A stretch of 18,927 bases of DNA from IMG/VR virus record IMGVR_UViG_2585427785_000005; one strand, written 5' to 3'. Positions within the stretch are counted from its first letter, which is position 1, and each line of letters begins with the position of its first letter. The notes below the pieces were generated by a model. The model was not told the origin of the DNA. It saw only the letters and a program-made list of their open reading frames with translations, and did not search any database. The translations under genes were made by a program, and so were the position numbers. This stretch comes from a virus (lineage: Duplodnaviria > Heunggongvirae > Uroviricota > Caudoviricetes). Below, in pieces: positions 7,508-18,674 of the stretch.

Positions 7508-10261
7508 TCAGCTAATCGTGATGCCTGCAGTGGCTTTCTTCATCACCACAACCAGCAAATCGCTGATACTTGCTGTGGGATACCAGTTATTTACCAGCCA
7601 TGCTGACACCGAAAACTCCAGTGTCATGTGACCGTGACCGGCAGGCATATCAATAACACCACTGTAAATCAGCGTATTATCCAGCGCGGTACGGTTATAA
7701 ATTTCAGCACCGTTTTTCCGCACTATCAGACGGCATGAGGAGTAAATATCAGTATGCTCTTTCTCATGTTTAGCGCCGCTGAATGCCACCGCCGGAATAA
7801 CAATCTGCCGGTCAAACGGCTGATCGTCATAAACCCTGACGGTAATGGTTCCTGATGGCCACCGCTCCGGTGCACGGGAGTCCCGGGGGAAAGCTTTGCC
7901 CACTGTTTTAACGAGATCGCCTTCAATCTGGTTCGCGGACAATTTTCCCAGAACCCGACAGTTCTCGTTAATCGTGACGTTGTTGAGCGTCCCGGAGTTC
8001 GCATTCACGTTACCGCTGATATCGGCATTTTTCGCCGTCAGCCGCCCGTCCGGTGTCAGGGAAAATGCCGGAGGATTACCGCCGCTGGTAATGGTGGGAG
8101 CCGTCAGATATTTCAGGAACACTTCATTCATAAATATCTGATCGCCCTGACCAACAAACATCGGCTTTGTGTTGCCATTCGCAGGATTAATCATCGCAAT
8201 CCTGTCTGCCGCCAGCAGCACCTGACTCTGCATTCCTGCTGGCGTATTCTCAATACCGGCACCGATACCCGCAATATAAAGGCGTCCGTCCTGCATCTGC
8301 TGCAGTTTCACGGCCCACATGCTGTTCAGGTTATTATTTGTATCAACCTGAACTTTCTGTATCTGCTGGATTGCCGCACTCTGATTTTCCAGTTTTTTAT
8401 TGACGGTCTGCGTGATTTCATTGCTGACATTCGTAATGGACGTCCTGATTTCAGCCAGGTCCGGCGCAAGCTGACCGTTATCAATCTGCGTCCACAGCTC
8501 CTGGGCCAGATGTGTTTTCCCGATTTCTCCTTTGAAAAAATCCAGGTAACCTTCCGCATCATCGCTCGCCCGACCGACAGCCTCCACGAATGCCGATTTG
8601 CCGACTGTATTCACACTGCGGATATAAAAATAATAATCATGGCCCGGCTTGATATTGATACTGGCAGCTATCCAGTACAGCGCCGAGCCAAGATAGCGGG
8701 CTGCGGTTTCAACCTGCCTGATATCCGCAATCCGCTTTTCTGAGAACCAGAACTCAAACTGTACCGTCGGATCATAAACGGCAAGATACGGCGTGGCGGT
8801 TATCTGAAAATAGCCCGGCGTCAGCTCAATCCGCGACGGCGCTGCCGGTGCGGCAATCCGGAACGATACCGATGCCGGATCGCCCTGCTGCCCCCACGCA
8901 TTTGCCGCCCGGACTGTCAGCCTGTAGTTTCCCAGCGCCAGTTGCGTGAAGCGGTATGTGGTTTCCGTCGTCCTGGCCGTGCTGACCAGCCGCTCACTGC
9001 CGTCATCCGCTGCCACGGTCAGGCGAAGCAGGAAGCTCACGCCCTTCACCACCTTCGGCGTGTCCCAGCGGGCCAGTACCTGATATTCCCCGCTGTCTGC
9101 GGTGACTTCGGCAGTCAGGTGCTGCACCGCTGGCGGCGTGACACCATTCACCGTGCCGCTCTGGTCGCCGTCAAAGTGCGCCCCGTTATCCACGATGGCT
9201 TCTTTTTCCGGTACATGCTGCACGGCGGTGATGGCATACGTGCCGTCATCGTTCTCACGGATACTCACGCAGCGGAACAGGCGCTGGCGCAACGTCGGCA
9301 GCTTCAGCCCCCATACGCTGTATTCAGCAACGCCGTCAGGAACACGGCTCACTTTCACCTTCACGCCGTCGGTGACGGACTGAACCTCCACGCTGACCGG
9401 ACTCCCCTGCCCGTCAACCAGGCTTATCAGCGTGGTGCCGGAAGATGGCAGCGTGATTTCACGGTCGAGCGTCAGCGTCCGGGTCTGGCTGTTTACCGCC
9501 AGCACGCGCCCGCCGGTGCGGATACCGGCATAGTCATCATCGCAGATTTCAATGACATCGCCCGGTACATGGCGAAGCCCTTCGGCACCCACGCTGAAGT
9601 CCACGGTCTGCGTTTCCAGCAGTTCTGTTTTAATCAGCCACAGCCCGGCGCGGTGTGCCTGCCCCCGGCTGGTACAGCCAAAAGCATCCATCTTCGTGAC
9701 GTTACGACCGTAACGGGCAATGGCCTGCGTGTCCTCCACAAGCTCTGTCGCCGTCTCCCAGCCGTTATTCGGGTCAATCCAGTTCACCTCAACGGCATTA
9801 TGGCGGTCCTTCAGGGCGCTGAAGCTGTAGCGGAACGGCGCACCATCATCCGGCATCACCACATTACTGCGGTTATAGGTCCACACCTTATCCGATGGCC
9901 GGTCCTGCACAAACGTCAGCGTCTGCCCGTTCCATACCGGCATACAGCGCATCGCCGAGCAGAAATCACTGAGCACATCCCACGCCTTGCGCTGCGTGGT
10001 CAGGTACGCATTACAGGTAATACGCGGCTCCGTGCCACCAAAGCCATCCGGCACCGACTGGTCGCAATTCTGGCCGATGACATACAGCGCCCATTTATCC
10101 ACATCCGCCGCACCAAGACGTTTCCCCATGCCGTAGCGCGGATGGGTCAGCATATCCCACAGACACCAGGCCATGTTGTTGCTGTATGCCGGTTTAAACG
10201 TTCCGTCCCAGATACCGCTGTACAGTTCATGATGCCAACCTGAAACGGCAGTGTTTCCCAC
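7508..10261 (-). CDS. J: tail tip / host specificity protein J, C-terminal ~900 aa (5'-truncated remnant with an open 917-codon frame)
   Basis: Large ORF in the lambda J position (upstream of lom and stf). The frame is open only from about 10285. The true N-terminal third of J and all head and tail-shaft genes are absent. Confidence 0.8.
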
Positions 10262-10452
10262 CGCCCCGGGGTATAAGACGACTCTTTAGGAAGGTAATAA
10301 TGTTTATTGGCCCACTGAACTGTCGTCAGTGGAACAGGAATAATGAGAGATAAAAGCCCTGTAGCTATCGCACCGGCTGCATTAGCTGCCTTCTGTGCGT
10401 CTGAAATCATCGATCCACCCGCCCACGTTTTCACCGGCCTTAGCTGCAACAT
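10147..10452 (-). pseudogene. A: terminase large subunit (gpA), N-terminal ~75-codon fragment; homology ends near 10213
   Basis: ...[34 protein letters not shown] parallels the lambda gpA N-terminus ([33 protein letters not shown]). After that the frame reads through J-derived sequence in the wrong frame to a stop. Confidence 0.75.
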
Positions 10453-10930
10453 TGGAGGCTTTCGCGATTTCAGTTTTCACCACATCAAGGTGTGATGGTG
10501 AAATGTCCGGATATTTACGCTGTAATGTCAACGGCACACGCACAAGTATCCCCGAAATCTCCTGTGCCACACGTTGCAGAATGAAGGTAAATAGTTCAGT
10601 TTCCAGCACCACTCCGTCTTCACGGGCATTTTTCAGTTCCTGCGCATCTGCCTGCGCTTTTGTGAGCCGGTAGCGTTCATAGTCAATGGTGCCGGGTTGT
10701 AAATCTGACTCCGCTGCCGCACGCAAATCGGCCAGTTCTTTGCGGAGCTTTTCGTTTTCGATATCAGTTTCCCTCTGCGCATACCACTGAATTGCCATGG
10801 CAGTATCAAATACAGATTCAATGCCCTTACTGCCTTTGGAGACGCAAGGGAGCCCCTGAGACTGCCAGCGTTCAATCGTCCGCGGGTCCACGTTAAAAAT
10901 TTCGGCAAGCCTCTTTTTATTAACCTTCAT
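10382..10930 (-). CDS. nu1: terminase small subunit (Nu1-like, 182 aa)
   Basis: [28 protein letters not shown]...[29 protein letters not shown] closely parallels lambda Nu1. Start taken at the ATG at 10930 rather than the track start at 10975. Confidence 0.9.
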
Positions 10931-10939
10931 AGAACAACT

Positions 10940-11120
10940 CATTATCAAATACAAGGCCCGACATGAAAACGCCAAAAAAAGGCATTTTCGGACACTTTCA
11001 TGTCGGACATTTATGAATGCAATATTAAAAAAAACAAAAAGTTATATTCGAGAAGTACCGACACGATTTTCCCTGAAAAATTTTCATAAATAGTGAAAAA
11101 CCGCGAGGTCGCCGCCCCGT
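10940..11120 (-). promoter_or_regulatory. cos site: cosN (cohesive-end sequence at 11106-11117) plus cosB-like repeated TerS-binding elements
   Basis: The minus strand reads GGGGCGGCGACCTCGCGGTTTTTCACTATTTATGAAAATTTT, almost identical to the left end of lambda cos as I remember it. Between cosN and the Nu1 start there are three copies of a TGTCCGAC/TCGGACA-like element (10947-10998). Confidence 0.85.
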
Positions 11121-11340: not shown

Positions 11341-12408
11341 ATGAGTCAACATCAATATTATCCACAGCTGAAATGGAAGCCTGCTGAATATGAATCTCTG
11401 ATGCTTTTAGATCAAACTACGCTCTCTGGTTTTACTCCGATCATTACCATTCCAGACATAGACTGGGATTATGAAAACGAATGCTACAAGAAGAGTTTGA
11501 GTTCTTACTTATCTGACTTCGGTATTAACCTTGCGGCATCCTGGAAAGCCAATCGTCCTGTTTTGCTGGATGTTAAATATTTAGATAAACATGGTTCGAG
11601 CCGCCATCATCCTCTAGATATGTGTATCCAAGATGCTAGAGTAAATGGTAAGGAAATTATCCCTGTTGTTTCTCCCGCATATTCAACAAACTATATACAT
11701 GCTGTTCAACGCAACTTAATCAATGGGCTCGCTATATCTATCACCCCCCAGACATGGCACCAATTCACAAGTCTGGTTAACCACTTAAATATTCATCCTA
11801 GTTTAATTGATGTAATCATTGATTTTGGAGATATTCAAAACGCAACTGATAGTTTAAAACAACAAGCATTAAGCATGGTCAACACATTATCAGGCCAAGC
11901 TCCGTGGAGAAACTTGATTTTATCTTCAACCGCATACCCGGCATCACAGGCAGGGATACCGCAACATCAAGTCCATCATATTCCGCGCCATGAATACGAT
12001 CTTTGGATGTACGTAGTACAGAATTTTAGCAATGGAAGAACGCCAAGTTTTAGTGATTATCCCACCGCTAGCTCTACCATTACGAGCGTAGACCCACGCT
12101 TCATGTCTCAGTATGTCTCAGTGAGATATTCGAACGATACCTCATGGATCTTTGTAAAAGGTACCGCAGTTAAAGGAAATGGATGGGGCCAAACTAAAAA
12201 CTTATGTACTACCCTTGTTAGTTCGCCAGAGTATCAAGTCTTTGGCTCCAAATTTAGTTGGGGGGATGATTACATTTACCAAAGATCATTAGGCGCTAAC
12301 AAATCTGGCGGCTCTAAAGAATGGCGTAAAGTTGCACATACGCACCATATTACGTTAGTCGTGAGACAGCTTTATTGGTTGGCGCAGACTCAGCCTGCCA
12401 AGCCTTAA
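11341..12408 (+). CDS. hypothetical protein, 355 aa (moron gene; possibly beta / sce7725-like family, unverified)
   Basis: Intact ORF in low-GC DNA with AAGGAG 7 nt before the ATG and an AT-rich promoter-like region at 11220-11335. No catalytic motif I can name by eye. Confidence 0.7.
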   Translation: MSQHQYYPQLKWKPAEYESLMLLDQTTLSGFTPIITIPDIDWDYENECYKKSLSSYLSDFGINLAASWKANRPVLLDVKYLDKHGSSRHHPLDMCIQDARVNGKEIIPVVSPAYSTNYIHAVQRNLINGLAISITPQTWHQFTSLVNHLNIHPSLIDVIIDFGDIQNATDSLKQQALSMVNTLSGQAPWRNLILSSTAYPASQAGIPQHQVHHIPRHEYDLWMYVVQNFSNGRTPSFSDYPTASSTITSVDPRFMSQYVSVRYSNDTSWIFVKGTAVKGNGWGQTKNLCTTLVSSPEYQVFGSKFSWGDDYIYQRSLGANKSGGSKEWRKVAHTHHITLVVRQLYWLAQTQPAKP

Positions 12409-12970
12409 CTTTCCAGCCTACGCGTTTCTTTAAGGCTGTTCTGACTTCAAGCCTGAGATTCGCTATTGGAATATTTTCCGCAATAATATTCCATAACTCA
12501 AATCGGGGCTTGCTTTTGATTCCTTTGGAATAGCCCCATCGTTCAAGTACGTCGATACATTCATCTTTCCAAAGCAATTGAGCGAGCATCAATGTGTCAT
12601 GGTTTCGATTAAGCTTTTCTCCACGCATGTGCTTTATAAGAATGGCGCCTTTTGGCCCAACAGAAACCGTTTTAACGCCCCACCAACCTGGGATTAACTT
12701 TAATGCTCCCTCAAGGTGTTTCTCAGCTACGACAAGAGTAACCTTGTCCATTACAGAAGAATAATGCTTGATTTGAAGAGGCAAACGCTCCAAAGAGTCA
12801 TATTCACTTTTGAGCTCGTACCCGTGTATAACACCATTTATTACAGCAATGTCTGCTCTACTGGCGCCAAGGGATATGGAAAATTCATCGACCACAAGGC
12901 AGTCTGGATCTAAATGCGATTCTTTCAAAAGCTTATGATGCACCGCGAACCTAACATCTTGATCTTTCAT
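12350..12970 (-). CDS. hypothetical protein, 206 aa, with a PD-(D/E)xK nuclease-like core (possibly sce7726-like, unverified)
   Basis: Intact ORF with AGGAGA before the ATG and a perfect TATAAT (minus strand, 12999-13004) upstream. The N-terminal region has D40-x11-E52-L-K54 in a hydrophobic context (RADIAVINGVIHGYELKSEYD). Confidence 0.7.
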   Translation of the reverse strand: MKDQDVRFAVHHKLLKESHLDPDCLVVDEFSISLGASRADIAVINGVIHGYELKSEYDSLERLPLQIKHYSSVMDKVTLVVAEKHLEGALKLIPGWWGVKTVSVGPKGAILIKHMRGEKLNRNHDTLMLAQLLWKDECIDVLERWGYSKGIKSKPRFELWNIIAENIPIANLRLEVRTALKKRVGWKVKAWQAESAPTNKAVSRLT

Positions 12971-15115: not shown

Positions 15116-16969
15116 TTATGATGATGCCGGTGCATTTATCTCCAGCACCAGACTTTCTATCTCAACGCCATACGCTGCATTTTTTGTAACATCCGTCAGC
15201 GTCAGCGCATTCAGCCCCAGTGTCAGACTGTCTTTTATGACCTGGAATGCCGGGCCAGCCACTCCATTCAGTTTCGGAGTAACCGTGACACTGCCGGCGG
15301 TGAACACCAGCTCCAGCGTCTGCCAGTCGTTACCGTAATCGCCGAACTCCCCCAGCTTCGTGTTTCCGGCTTTCCTGTGATGCATCAGATTCAGTTTGCC
15401 GTCTGTGGTCTGGGTGAAGAACGACATCAGGAACGGGTTACCAGTCCCGGTCATCGCCACGACGTCAGGTAACGCTACATCGGTATACAGATAAATTCCC
15501 AGACCGAACTGGTTGTTGGTCAGTGCGCCTGACAGTCGAAACTTACAGCTCAGTCTGCCACCCCGTGTCAGCAGGGAGACTGCGTCATCCACCGGATGCA
15601 TCAGGGACCAGGTTTTATTGCTCTGCTTGGTGATCTTAAATACACCATCTGACAACTGAATTCCGCCATTCTTAATGCTCCAGCCCTGCGCAGCAGCATC
15701 TCCGGCTGTCGGCAACAGGGAGATTGTGCGTACGGATGCATCTTCAGACGGCCCCGATGGCGTGTCGCCGCCGGGCGAGGGTTTGATTTCCGGTGCCTTA
15801 CCACTAATGAAGGCTAAGGTGCGACCGGCTACGTTCAGAATAGCAGTTGCCATACGATCGGGAATAATGCCACGACGCGCCCATGAGCTGAAATGCGTCG
15901 GGCGATTTGATGATACCCAGTTTTTGTTCGTTCGGGATGCCGAACCGTAATAACCAGACCCGGCAATATCAGGATCTTCTGACGGGTTGTTTGTCGGTGT
16001 ATTAACTCCGCTACCATCGGTCATAAAGGGAACAAAATAAATCTGCTGGGATTCTTTACCTTTATATGCACCATATACCACTTCATATTGCGTACCGTGT
16101 TCTTGTTTCCACGCGTATGTCGTGTCGCCACAAATTCAGGGGACTGATGCCGGACTTCCACCGTGACACTGCGCCGCCAGCCCGGCAAGGTCAGCACGGA
16201 ACTGCTGTACCATTGCAAGAAATGCTGCTGGCTGCTGGGCGTAACTGGCATTCGTCATATCGAATTCCCCCTGCATCCAGCATATCGCCAGCAAAACGTT
16301 TTTCGGGTTTTTCTGCAATGCTGCCTTCGTGCGGAAAAGCAGATCCTGATATAACGGCTTACCCACTCCCCAGCGAGCCGAATCCTGACTGGCCCCCGTG
16401 GACTCGCTGAATGTCCCCTCCGTGCCCTGGGTGAATGCCGAACCACCACGACAGCATGGTACCAGCAGGATCCCCGCGTTATTAGGGATATACGGAAGCA
16501 GTTTTTTGGCAATATGTAAGCCCTGTCCGACACAGCCGTACTGCCCTTTGCTCAGGTCAGCCCGGGGATGATTAATCGTACTCATATCCTGAACATCATG
16601 CAGACAATGGTCAGCAGGAATGATGTCGTTAAATACGCATACTTCACCACCGGGAGTCACTGTGTTACGACGGGCCAGTTGCTTAATGCGCGGATGGGGC
16701 GCATCGTATGAATCCGGAAGCGGAAGCCCTTCACCGTAAGCCATGGCATTGGATTGCCCGGCCAGTACGATGACGTAGTACCACTCCGGCTCAGTTGCAC
16801 CACTGACGACCACATCACCTTCTGCTGCAATCGCCTGCATCAGGGTATAAGGGGTTATGGCCACCGGACTACCAAACGGCTGCCAGCCCTCTTTCAGTTT
16901 ATGTGTCAGCTTTTCCGCAAGATCTGACGGCGACGCCGCCCTGACAACATCATAGTGTTTAAATGCCAT
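15116..16969 (-). pseudogene. NanS-p-like sialate O-acetylesterase (DUF1737 N-terminus plus SGNH-type esterase plus C-terminal domain) interrupted by an in-frame TGA at 16136-16138
   Basis: N-terminus MAFKHYDVVRAASPSDLAEKLTHKLKEGWQPFGSPV and a GQSN esterase motif (YYVIVLAGQSNAMAY). The two track ORFs (16136-16984 and 15116-16081) are in the same frame, separated only by one TGA and 18 sense codons. Confidence 0.75.
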
Positions 16970-17162
16970 GGTTCTTTCCACCATCTGAAAAATGATTCTT
17001 TAAAATACCTGACATGTAATACAGAAAAAACACAAAACCATACCTTAAATAAAAACCTCATCATCAAGCAGATATGCATGGATAAACTACAAGACGAGAT
17101 ATAAACCACCCTGCATTTAAATAAACAATAAACAACATCAGAAAAATAATTCTGCTCTATGG

Positions 17163-17229: not shown

Positions 17230-17565
17230 ATGAAGTGGATTGTGATTGATACAGTTATCCAGCCATCATGCGGAATATCTTTTTCAGTCATATGGAGTAA
17301 AATAAAATTAATAATCTGGTATCAATCGGATGCTTTCTTACCTCCTGAAAGTATATTTACACTGACTCACACAGGCATCATGCTCAATAACAAAGTGCTA
17401 CCTGTAACCATTTACAACGTAGTACCATTCAATAAAACATTCTGGAATTTAATCAAAAACAGCCAGGAATGCCCTACAAATACAGATAACGTATTGAATG
17501 AATGCTTTAATAACCGTTGCACTCTGCAAATATGTCCTTATGGGCTAAAACAACAAAGTCCATAA
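17230..17565 (+). CDS. hypothetical 111-aa protein, AT-rich moron ORF
   Basis: AAGGAAA Shine-Dalgarno sequence 7 nt before the ATG. Very low GC, five Cys in the C-terminal half, no recognisable motif. Opposite strand to the surrounding late genes. Confidence 0.35.
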
Positions 17566-17584: not shown

Positions 17585-17790
17585 CAAAATCAATATAAAC
17601 AGCCCCTCCGGAGAGGGGCTGGAGAGTGGCGCTATGTGCCATTGCATGGTGCCGGGTGCCTCCCGGTGAATTCAGTACCAGCACCTGAATCCGCGATTAT
17701 CCCATATACCTACTCGCTGATTACCCCTCCGCACAGGGGGATTCACCATGCGAAATTTTTTAACAAACTTCCCGCCGGCCAGACAATAAT
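17585..17790 (-). ncRNA. E1: candidate promoter, ~160-nt structured transcript and intrinsic terminator (minus strand)
   Basis: -35 TTGTCT (17786-17781), 18-nt spacer, -10 TAAAAA (17762-17757). The 5' GCAUGGUG pairs with a 3' CACCAUGC. Terminator hairpin AGCCCCTC-tccg-GAGGGGCT (17620-17601) then a T-rich tail. Confidence 0.35.
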
Positions 17791-18057
17791 CGCCAGCCTG
17801 AATTATGAGCAACGTGGCATTTTACGGGAAAACTGTTTTCTGCAGTAAAAAGGCCCGCCGGAGCGAGCCTGGAAGGATAGCGGTCATGTGATGCCGGTTT
17901 CCCGGTAACTCAGCATCGGTATCTGAGTCAACGTTTTCTCTACTGGGTCATTTCCGATACGTTCCGCCTTCCGGCAGACTTTCATCACGTCAGAAAATAT
18001 AGCACCCTGAGTAACAGGACAGTACTCAGAATTCAGGAAACTGTGACACATCCTGCA

Positions 18058-18255
18058 CAGAAAAGCCCCTCCGGAGAGGGGCTGAAGTATAGCCTAATTT
18101 CTGTCTGTCGCATGGTGCCAGGGGACTCCCGGTAAATTCAGCCTGTCTACTGAATTTGCATGTTCTCTGGATCATACACTTTGCCAGATGCCCCGCCGCT
18201 GAGGGGGATTCACCATGCGATGTAATTTTTAACAAATTCTCCGGCAGCCAGACAA
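18058..18255 (-). ncRNA. E2: diverged tandem copy of E1 with the same promoter, 5'/3' pairing and terminator
   Basis: -35 TTGTCT (18255-18250), 18-nt spacer, -10 TAAAAA (18231-18226). 5' CGCAUGGUG pairs with 3' CACCAUGCG. Hairpin 18083-18064 followed by UUUUC. Confidence 0.35.
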
Positions 18256-18452
18256 TCATCAAGCTGTGGAATTGTGAGGTATTTAAAAATTTCAACGGGT
18301 AACTGATACCCTGCTAATCGCCTGATGCTTTCTTTTTCAGCAACGGGAAAGCAACAACCACACACCCGCCACCAAAACACCATCAGACAGCACCGACATT
18401 ATCCGGCTGCTGAAGTCCACCATCACCACCAGAAACAACAGGAGTGCAACCA

Positions 18453-18498
18453 CAGCTGCTTAGAAGGCAATTGCTCTGTCCGGCTGAGCTAACAACGC
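18453..18498 (-). pseudogene. truncated tRNA-like remnant (5' half, Arg anticodon UCU-like)
   Basis: Minus strand reads GCGTTGT-TA-GCTC-AGCCGGACA-GAGC-A-ATTGC-CTTCTAA-GCAGC (acceptor 5' strand, D-arm, anticodon arm with TCT), but there is no canonical T-arm or matching acceptor 3' strand. Confidence 0.4.
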
Positions 18499-18598: not shown

Positions 18599-18674
18599 TG
18601 GTGGCCCTTGCTGGATTTGAACCAGCGACCTGGCGATTATGAGTCGCTCGCTCTCACCACTGAGCTAAAGGGCC
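18599..18674 (-). tRNA. tRNA with CAU anticodon (Ile2/lysidine-type or Met; ileX/ileZ-like)
   Basis: GGCCCTTTAGCTCAGTGGTGAGAGCGAGCGACTCATAATCGCCAGGTCGCTGGTTCAAATCCAGCAAGGGCCACCA, 76 nt. Perfect 7-bp acceptor stem, T-loop TTCAAAT, encoded CCA. Close to the E. coli ileX sequence as I remember it. Confidence 0.85.

Follow-up and report, generated by a model that had tools for sequence, protein, structure and literature searches.

The stretch of DNA analysed here (the window) consists of the 18,927 nucleotides (nt) of the phage record IMGVR_UViG_2585427785_000005 and is part of an Escherichia coli lambdoid prophage whose late genes lie on the minus strand. The region examined, 17585-18255, most probably carries three tandem same-strand genes for small RNAs (sRNAs) of the STnc100/PasD family of lambdoid prophages, which would be expressed and act as proposed below; we put the probability of this reading at about 0.75. 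The three units, read on the minus strand, are called E2, M and E1 in that order. E1 and E2 are clear members of STnc100 (Rfam RF02076), and M is a diverged paralogue. The family has already been catalogued in lambdoid and Shiga-toxin (Stx) prophages, and what is added here is modestly new: a third copy, the recurrence of arrays, a scaffold with swappable tails, and a copy in the dicB leader.

Identification of the family rests on full-length matches of E1 and E2 to the Rfam STnc100 model on the minus strand. E2 scores 132.9 bits over 18055-18248 (E = 1.6e-29) and E1 132.5 bits over 17591-17779 (E = 2e-29), the curated gathering threshold being 47; M, with 30 bits over 17844-18019 (E = 2.5e-4), is the only unit that falls short of it. 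The STnc100 model also spans about 29 nt that are probably promoter DNA. The consensus helices of the family (the closing helix, a CCCCC/GGGGG hairpin, a GGAUUCAG hairpin, a CCGGG hairpin and the terminator) are formed in the folds of E1 and E2. The location is also that of the family, in the late region of a lambdoid prophage and downstream of Q and the moron site, as seen in the DA33133 prophage and in the Stx2 phage F004. The Rfam scan of the window gave no AsxR, AgvB or other sRNA besides STnc100, and the PasA probe sequence is not in the window. IpeX of the prophage DLP12 was discarded as an identity, the DLP12 region of MG1655 containing no STnc100 by Rfam. A scan of genome contigs with the 14-base pattern CATGGTGAATCCNCC returned chance matches in unrelated phyla only.

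The initial annotation described two tandem diverged copies. E1 and E2 do align along their whole length, with 122 matches in 169 columns (72%) and a score of 65 against -7 ± 5 in shuffles, but the copy between them had been overlooked and the units are three. M extends over about 17846-18004, with an RNA at about 17990-17846; its identity to E1 and E2 is 59-62%. R1, a covariance model made in this work from the 5' domain, finds exactly three copies in the window; M scores 30.5 bits (E = 1.3e-5) and the next best match 10 bits. The units are spaced by 228 and 239 nt and share one plan, namely a promoter-like element, a multi-helix 5' domain of about 105 nt, a linker of 15-26 nt and a GC-rich intrinsic terminator.

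The 5' structured domains occupy 18110-18218 in E2 (95.4 bits with R1), 17886-17990 in M and 17644-17751 in E1 (114.2 bits), all on the minus strand, and are composed of the closing helix P1, P2, a variable region, P4 and P5. As had been proposed, the initial GCAUGGUG (E1 17751-17744, E2 18218-18211) is complementary to CACCAUGC 100 nt downstream (E1 17651-17644, E2 18117-18110). This helix, P1, closes the minimum-free-energy fold of both E1 (z = -3.25) and E2 (z = -3.79); the fold of M has z = -2.83. In M, P1 is formed by ACGUGAUG and CAUCACAU, with seven of the eight pairs kept, one mismatch, and three pairs changed on both sides with respect to E1 and E2. P4 of M (UGACUCAG/CUGAGUUA) has two such double changes, and so does its terminator stem when compared with the E1/E2 terminator. 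The other two helices of M are UCUGCC-GGAA-GGCGGA (P2) and CCGG-GAAA-CCGG (P5).

Homologues were taken from 120 viral contigs fetched by exact match to a 16-mer of the RNA 5' end that comprises the 5' arms of P1 and P2. R1 was built from 20 distinct well-aligned copies and the rest were aligned with Infernal; since with MAFFT the 3' ends of PasD and M came out misaligned, the alignment was fitted with the Infernal model. Standard pairs make up 97.9% of the cells in 121 matches (52 distinct sequences). In the 52 distinct sequences, with pair counts that lean towards the model structure, changes on both sides are seen in 16 of the 26 pairs; the corresponding numbers are 4.0 ± 1.4 after shuffling of columns and 1-7 after sliding of the partners by 1-3 columns. 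The double changes concern all eight pairs of P4, five of eight in P1 and three of five in P2, and none of the five of P5 (CCGGGAGGCACCCGG), which is nearly invariant in sequence. The helices are thus maintained by compensatory changes, both between M and E1/E2 and among homologues. Together with overlapping open reading frames (ORFs) that match no protein family, this agrees with the earlier suggestion of selection on RNA structure rather than on coding.

The promoter initially described for E1 and E2 is present in both: TTGTCT is followed, after a spacer of 18 nt, by TAAAAA, which has TG one base upstream; this is equivalent to TTGTCT-17-TTAAAA. As read from the sequence, the promoter-like element of E2 lies at 18226-18255 on the minus strand (-35 TTGTCT at 18255-18250, a variable spacer, and TGtTAAAAA at 18234-18226). 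That of E1, at 17757-17786 (TTGTCT at 17786-17781 and TGtTAAAAA at 17765-17757), is also supported by conservation across the family. Among 51 distinct upstream flanks of homologues, 44 have TTAAAA ending 7-8 nt ahead of the domain, and in 42 of these 44 it is preceded, at a distance of 16-18 nt (in most cases 17), by a TTG-type hexamer; conservation of the spacer between both blocks is poor. Conserved blocks separated by a variable spacer are the pattern expected of a sigma-70 promoter, and suggest promoter function. M is preceded by an extended -10 (TGcTATATT, 17996-18004) and has no clear -35; M-type copies in other loci carry TGCTATATT in place of TTAAAA, and the same extended -10 stands before all M-type copies. 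The 5' end of PasD1, defined by RNA sequencing (RNA-seq) and Northern blot (NC_011601 position 1060260), maps onto the G of GCAUGGUG, the very position that had been predicted for the start of the RNA. A study of Salmonella LT2, which has several STnc100 copies, reports RpoD bound at all sRNAs with an assigned sigma factor, and depicts the promoter regions of these copies and their RpoD and RpoN binding pattern in a figure (PMC10794520). Promoter activity is therefore deduced from conservation, the PasD 5' end and this published statement based on chromatin immunoprecipitation with exonuclease digestion (ChIP-exo).

Different reports provide Northern blots, Hfq crosslinking and analysis of cDNA (CRAC) and RNA interaction through ligation and sequencing (RIL-seq) data on family members (PMC4104026, PMC8550237, PMC5331693). 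Relatives yield discrete RNAs of about 160-210 nt in lysogens (EcOnc27/sRNA103, STnc100_4 and PasD by Northern blot), and two of them, EcOnc27 and PasD, were isolated in association with Hfq. For instance, EcOnc27 of O157 Sakai, a copy located 3' of stx2B, was found by Hfq ultraviolet crosslinking and Northern blot and is arranged convergently with the anti-sRNA AsxR (PMC4104026, PMC7873438). The sRNA103 of EDL933 is the same RNA (PMC7873438). EDL933 has 11 STnc100 copies, all of them with RNA-seq reads and one confirmed by Northern blot (PMC5331693). According to a 2026 preprint, PasD1 and PasD2 of enteropathogenic E. coli (EPEC) share an ancestor with STnc100 (10.64898/2026.05.13.724894). 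The PasD seed, UGUGAG, was inferred at about positions 137-142 of 173 nt, and its RIL-seq chimeras fall in the 3' ~50 nt. Both PasD1 and PasD2 score 43.7 bits with R1, a model made from STnc100-type copies, which indicates homology of the 5' domain. In the alignment to E1 and E2, the promoter type and the first ~100 nt are common, and the linker and the terminator differ; the PasD 3' module (the UGUGAG seed and a GGCUGCGC/GCGCGGCC terminator) is absent from E1, M and E2. Judged by their sequences, the three units are relatives of PasD and not PasD itself. The idea of phage-encoded sRNA genes is thus borne out by Rfam membership, the compensatory changes of the helices, the lack of Pfam matches and the published data on relatives.

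The last part of each unit, the terminator, was recovered in all three cases by a generic terminator scan. In E2 it occupies 18058-18083 (hairpin 18083-18064, AGCCCCUC-UCCG-GAGGGGCU followed by UUUUCUG, also seen in the fold), in M 17846-17870 (hairpin 17870-17851, AGGCUCGC-UCCG-GCGGGCCU followed by UUUUA) and in E1 17591-17620 (hairpin 17620-17601). Of the identical GC-rich hairpin with U-rich tail that had been noted in E1 and E2, the hairpin is indeed identical, but the U-tract of E1 (GUUUAUAUUG) is poor. Between domain and terminator lie the linkers, which are candidate seeds: GACAGACAGAAAUUAGGCUAUACUUC in E2 (18084-18109), unlike those of E1 and M; (A)UGACCGCUAUCCUUCC in M (17871-17885), kept in both M alleles and predicted to be unpaired; and AAUGGCACAUAGCGCCACUCUCC in E1 (17621-17643), which belongs to the commonest tail type in viral loci.

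In the mode of action that we propose, each unit would have a sigma-70 promoter of its own, with transcription beginning at the G of GCAUGGUG (in M, at an A or C near 17990) and stopping at the unit's own terminator. The predicted RNAs, of about 161 (E2), 145 (M) and 158 nt (E1), would be expressed in the lysogen. The 5' domain, in which the first nucleotide would be paired into the 8-10-bp helix P1, is probably a stabilising scaffold; this pairing would hinder 5'-end-dependent decay. The terminator hairpin and U-tail would be the Hfq-loading module, and the linkers could be three different seeds acting on trans-encoded mRNAs or sRNAs. Since the three linkers differ, three target sets would be expected. 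The linker has the same relative position as the PasD seed, an analogy that favours such a role. In lytic growth, Q-modified polymerase coming from the late promoter pR' would pass all three terminators and continue into the esterase and lysis genes.

Several observations weigh against this proposal. The generic promoter scan made no call at E1 or E2, because their -10 does not have the usual final T, and the expression of this locus and of the M subtype is deduced from sequence and relatives. The weak U-tract of E1 may render termination and Hfq loading inefficient in this unit. The 16-mer used to collect homologues fixes the 5' arms of P1 and P2, where variation is under-sampled and comes from M-type, PasD and other extra copies, and the covariation alignment was fitted to the model. 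Conservation is reversed with respect to usual Hfq-dependent sRNAs, the scaffold being conserved and the presumed seed variable, and therefore the main function may lie in the 5' domain. A copy of the domain that has no terminator of its own is also found in the dicB leader, between DicF and the dicB start codon. We know of no validated target for any STnc100-type member. Overexpressed sRNA103 raised the transcript levels of fimZ and espA (PMC12711010, PMC7873438).

The family as a whole provides further information about the modularity of these units. Downstream of P1, at least 25 sequence clusters were distinguished in 119 matches, most of them consisting of a 15-60-nt linker, a GC-rich hairpin and a U-tract, and one tail type can be joined to up to eight different 5' domains. 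This is the case of the E1 tail type (37 matches). In another locus (L053), a moron ORF coding for a lipoprotein-like protein replaces the tail directly after P1. Across the family, therefore, the 5' domain is conserved, and linker and terminator are exchanged as a module. A riboswitch or attenuator is unlikely because the terminators are exchanged freely: there is no conserved alternative pairing between sensor and terminator, and one 5' domain is joined to many unrelated terminators (the 25 tail clusters). Cross-pairing of P2 with the terminator is possible in E1 and E2 and, by eye, absent in M and in other tails. Two further candidates were rejected, also by eye, since the loops fit the consensus of neither: P5 as a lambda boxB/nut-like element, and the GGA/GGAGG motifs of P2 and P5 as a CsrA sponge.

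Arrays are not restricted to the window. Among the fetched loci, ten others have three copies, two have two and one has four, with spacings of 206-409 nt. The array of four, the largest seen, is located in a viral contig (L009, 2326-3350, minus strand), and each of its domains has a different tail. M-type copies are nearly always flanked by two E-type copies. Of 5426 complete E. coli genomes, 673 have the M-type sequence, in the form of two alleles (100% and about 91% identical), and this copy is unannotated in 29 of 30 records among the matches listed. Sequence resembling E1 is found in 354 phage records, the majority of them of Stx-converting phages. Many E. coli chromosomes match the segment 17100-18700 at 99.9% identity, and at least 80% of it is covered in 1010 of the 5426 complete genomes. 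In the preprint on EPEC, the PasA and PasD copies are distal and not in tandem, and arrays are not mentioned (10.64898/2026.05.13.724894).

The alternative that survives best, which we nevertheless regard as rather unlikely, is that the conserved 5' domain itself is the functional part: a structured module for recognition by a protein or a ribonuclease (RNase), a decoy, or an element of processing or stability, with secondary tails and transcripts that are only vehicles. Conservation is far higher in the domain than in the tails, and the near-invariance of P5, while P4 covaries at every pair, fits sequence-specific recognition. The domain also stands upstream of the lipoprotein-like ORF mentioned above and, with no terminator, in the dicF-dicB spacer of this prophage type as well as of Qin in K-12. 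The copy of the DA33133 prophage, outside the window (L002, 31808-31933, plus strand), scores 48.1 bits with R1, and that of Qin (L246, 1956-2081, corresponding to NC_000913.3 about 1649455-1649580) 43.9 bits; with Rfam STnc100 the dicF-dicB copy gives 38.7 bits, below threshold. Its P1 is lengthened to about 21 bp, and the outer four pairs have changed on both sides. This copy is not mentioned in the paper on dicBF processing; RNase III processing was discarded as its explanation, since the published cleavage site is upstream of DicF and outside the structure of the domain. Several facts disagree with the domain being the functional part. The Hfq-linked chimeras and the inferred seed of PasD sit in the 3' tail, PasD is abundant and has many RNA partners in spite of having lost the 3' arm of P5, no binding partner of the domain is known, and its conservation could be partly due to homogenising recombination among prophages. 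A proposal of similarly low probability is that the ~105-nt domain is an autonomous prophage cassette, a protein or RNase site that would set stability or processing, to which different tails are attached and which is also used as the dicB leader. If this were true, tandem arrays would display several specificities from one scaffold, and the STnc100/PasD sRNAs and the dicBF operon would be linked through one unrecognised structured element.

The remaining alternatives have to be considered in the light of the genomic context. In the DA33133 prophage, nearly identical to that of the window, the order of the late region is Q, a small ORF, a DNA methyltransferase gene, tRNA(CAU), tRNA-Arg, a DUF3927 ORF, the array, iraM (opposite strand), a SASA-type esterase gene, holin, lysozyme and Rz. 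Of this order, the window contains the 3' part of the methyltransferase gene and all that follows it. The Stx2 phage F004 has Q, tRNAs, stx2A, stx2B, STnc100 (annotated in the record itself), esterase and holin. The stx-equivalent position assigned to the units in the initial annotation is correct in that they lie between the tRNAs and the late genes. However, F004 has the element just downstream of the toxin or moron slot, so that it is the conserved downstream neighbour of this slot and not a substitute for stx.

This position is one of the arguments for a function mainly in cis, in which the units would be a triple terminator or insulator that silences the esterase and lysis genes in the lysogen and is overridden by Q, the RNAs being by-products. 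Three late-strand intrinsic terminators are grouped within 600 nt, in the interval that separates the tRNAs from the late genes, and the position of the element is kept in Stx phages between stxB and the lysis genes. Such a cassette would, however, leave the conserved promoter ahead of each unit, the covarying 105-nt domain and the Hfq binding of family members unexplained, and a terminator alone needs only about 30 nt. We consider it improbable.

Much less probable is the suggestion, also made initially, that E1 and E2 are duplicated late-promoter or Q-antitermination modules of the pR'-qut-tR' type. The likeness is superficial and consists in a promoter, a transcript of ~160 nt, a terminator and a site in the late operon. 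In DA33133, whose segment is 99.9% identical, Q is followed directly by a separate lambda-like pR', at a distance of about 2.9 kb upstream from the E2 start. It has TTGATT-16-TAAATT, AACGAT in the initial transcribed region and a strong terminator, CCCGCCGCCTGGCGGG-T6, about 60 nt further on, and the units, which do not follow Q immediately, share none of these features. By eye, no -10-like pause element comparable to that AACGAT is present in the first 25 nt of E1, M or E2 (GCAUGGUGAAUCCCCC...). In E2348/69 and F004 at least one gene separates Q from the family members.

Small protein-coding genes, or a mobile repeat resembling miniature inverted-repeat transposable elements (MITEs), are hardly credible as an explanation of the repeats: although ORFs of 50-89 amino acids (aa) overlap the units, a PGAP pseudogene for a 'hypothetical protein' is antisense to E1 and ribosome footprints exist on some EDL933 copies (PMC5331693), none of the overlapping ORFs has a Pfam match (on which ground the coding reading was rejected), the ORF spanning E2 has no counterpart of at least 50 aa over E1, the substitutions in the helices are compensatory, and the copies are confined to one lambdoid-prophage position. 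Because of this confinement, copy number tracks the number of prophages together with local tandem duplication.

Other features of the neighbourhood can be mentioned. A 38-aa DUF3927 ORF (18337-18453, minus strand) is located just upstream of E2, and the same ORF is found about 40 nt upstream of PasD1 and PasD2 in E2348/69; ORF and sRNA gene therefore appear to travel together. On the other side, the 3' end of iraM (17230-17565, plus strand), coding for an RssB anti-adaptor, converges on the E1 terminator. The gene takes the site held by AsxR/AgvB-type anti-sRNAs in O157 prophages, and read-through from it would be antisense to E1. There are two tRNAs here and three in F004. The one with anticodon CAU (18599-18674, minus strand) is called Met by ARAGORN and Ile by PGAP, and is probably the lysidine-modified ileZ-type of Stx-like phages. 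The SASA/DUF1737/DUF6645 esterase gene (nanS-p type; 15116-16984, minus strand) has an in-frame stop at 16136-16138 and, since the DA33133 homologue is intact (618 aa), is probably a pseudogene here. Between Rz and the small terminase gene Nu1, a divergent pair (11341-12970) consists of a Beta_protein gene (PF14350; PADLOC PD-Lambda-2_C/beta) and a gene with a PADLOC 'cll' match (sce7726 family in PGAP), and is a candidate anti-phage defence moron. Nu1 (10385-10975) abuts a 5'-truncated gpJ-like tail-tip ORF (7511-10261), both on the minus strand, and homology to the intact DA33133 prophage ends at 10221. Head and most tail genes thus appear to be deleted, and the prophage would be defective.

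This locus shows that the family grows by local tandem duplication besides the accumulation of prophages, that its conserved part is the scaffold and not the presumed seed, and that annotation with Rfam misses the diverged M subtype in about 12% of the complete E. coli genomes. Few bacterial sRNA families are annotated as frequently as STnc100, which has one copy directly 3' of stx2B. In a 2025 machine-learning study, sequence features predictive of haemolytic uraemic syndrome overlap this stx2B-adjacent copy (PMC12711010).

The array can be compared with several known systems. The lambda 6S RNA and StxS are also short terminated transcripts of the late operon that Q-modified polymerase would read through, but they start at a Q-dependent promoter that follows Q directly and they contain a pause element; neither holds for E1, M and E2. 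In OmrA/OmrB and PrrF1/PrrF2, as in the array, paralogous sRNA genes stand side by side and have individual promoters and terminators. In OmrA/OmrB, however, the seed end is conserved, whereas in E1, M and E2 the presumed seed is variable and the scaffold conserved, and no known regulator is shared. The anti-sRNAs AsxR and AgvB (Tree et al. 2014) lie at this moron site too, 3' of pR'; in Sakai they and genes of the STnc100 type make up convergent pairs, and they show a similar modular evolution, with a conserved part and a short variable specificity part. They differ in size (51-60 nt), in lying on the opposite strand, and in that their 3' part is conserved and their 5' end variable. PasD1 and PasD2, homologues of EcOnc13, resemble the units in promoter type, in the 5' start GCAUGGUGAAUCC, in helices P1, P2 and P4, and in a neighbourhood with the DUF3927 ORF just upstream and esterase or holin downstream. 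Features of their own are the absence of the P5 3' arm, the UGUGAG seed and the terminator GGCUGCGC...GCGCGGCC-U8. With respect to EcOnc27/sRNA103, the window has three tandem copies and no stx, and E1 converges on iraM instead of an AsxR/AgvB-type anti-sRNA. E1 and E2 share with this STnc100 RNA the same orientation and position (after Q, tRNAs and moron, before a nanS-type esterase gene and holin), the 5' domain and the GC-rich terminator.

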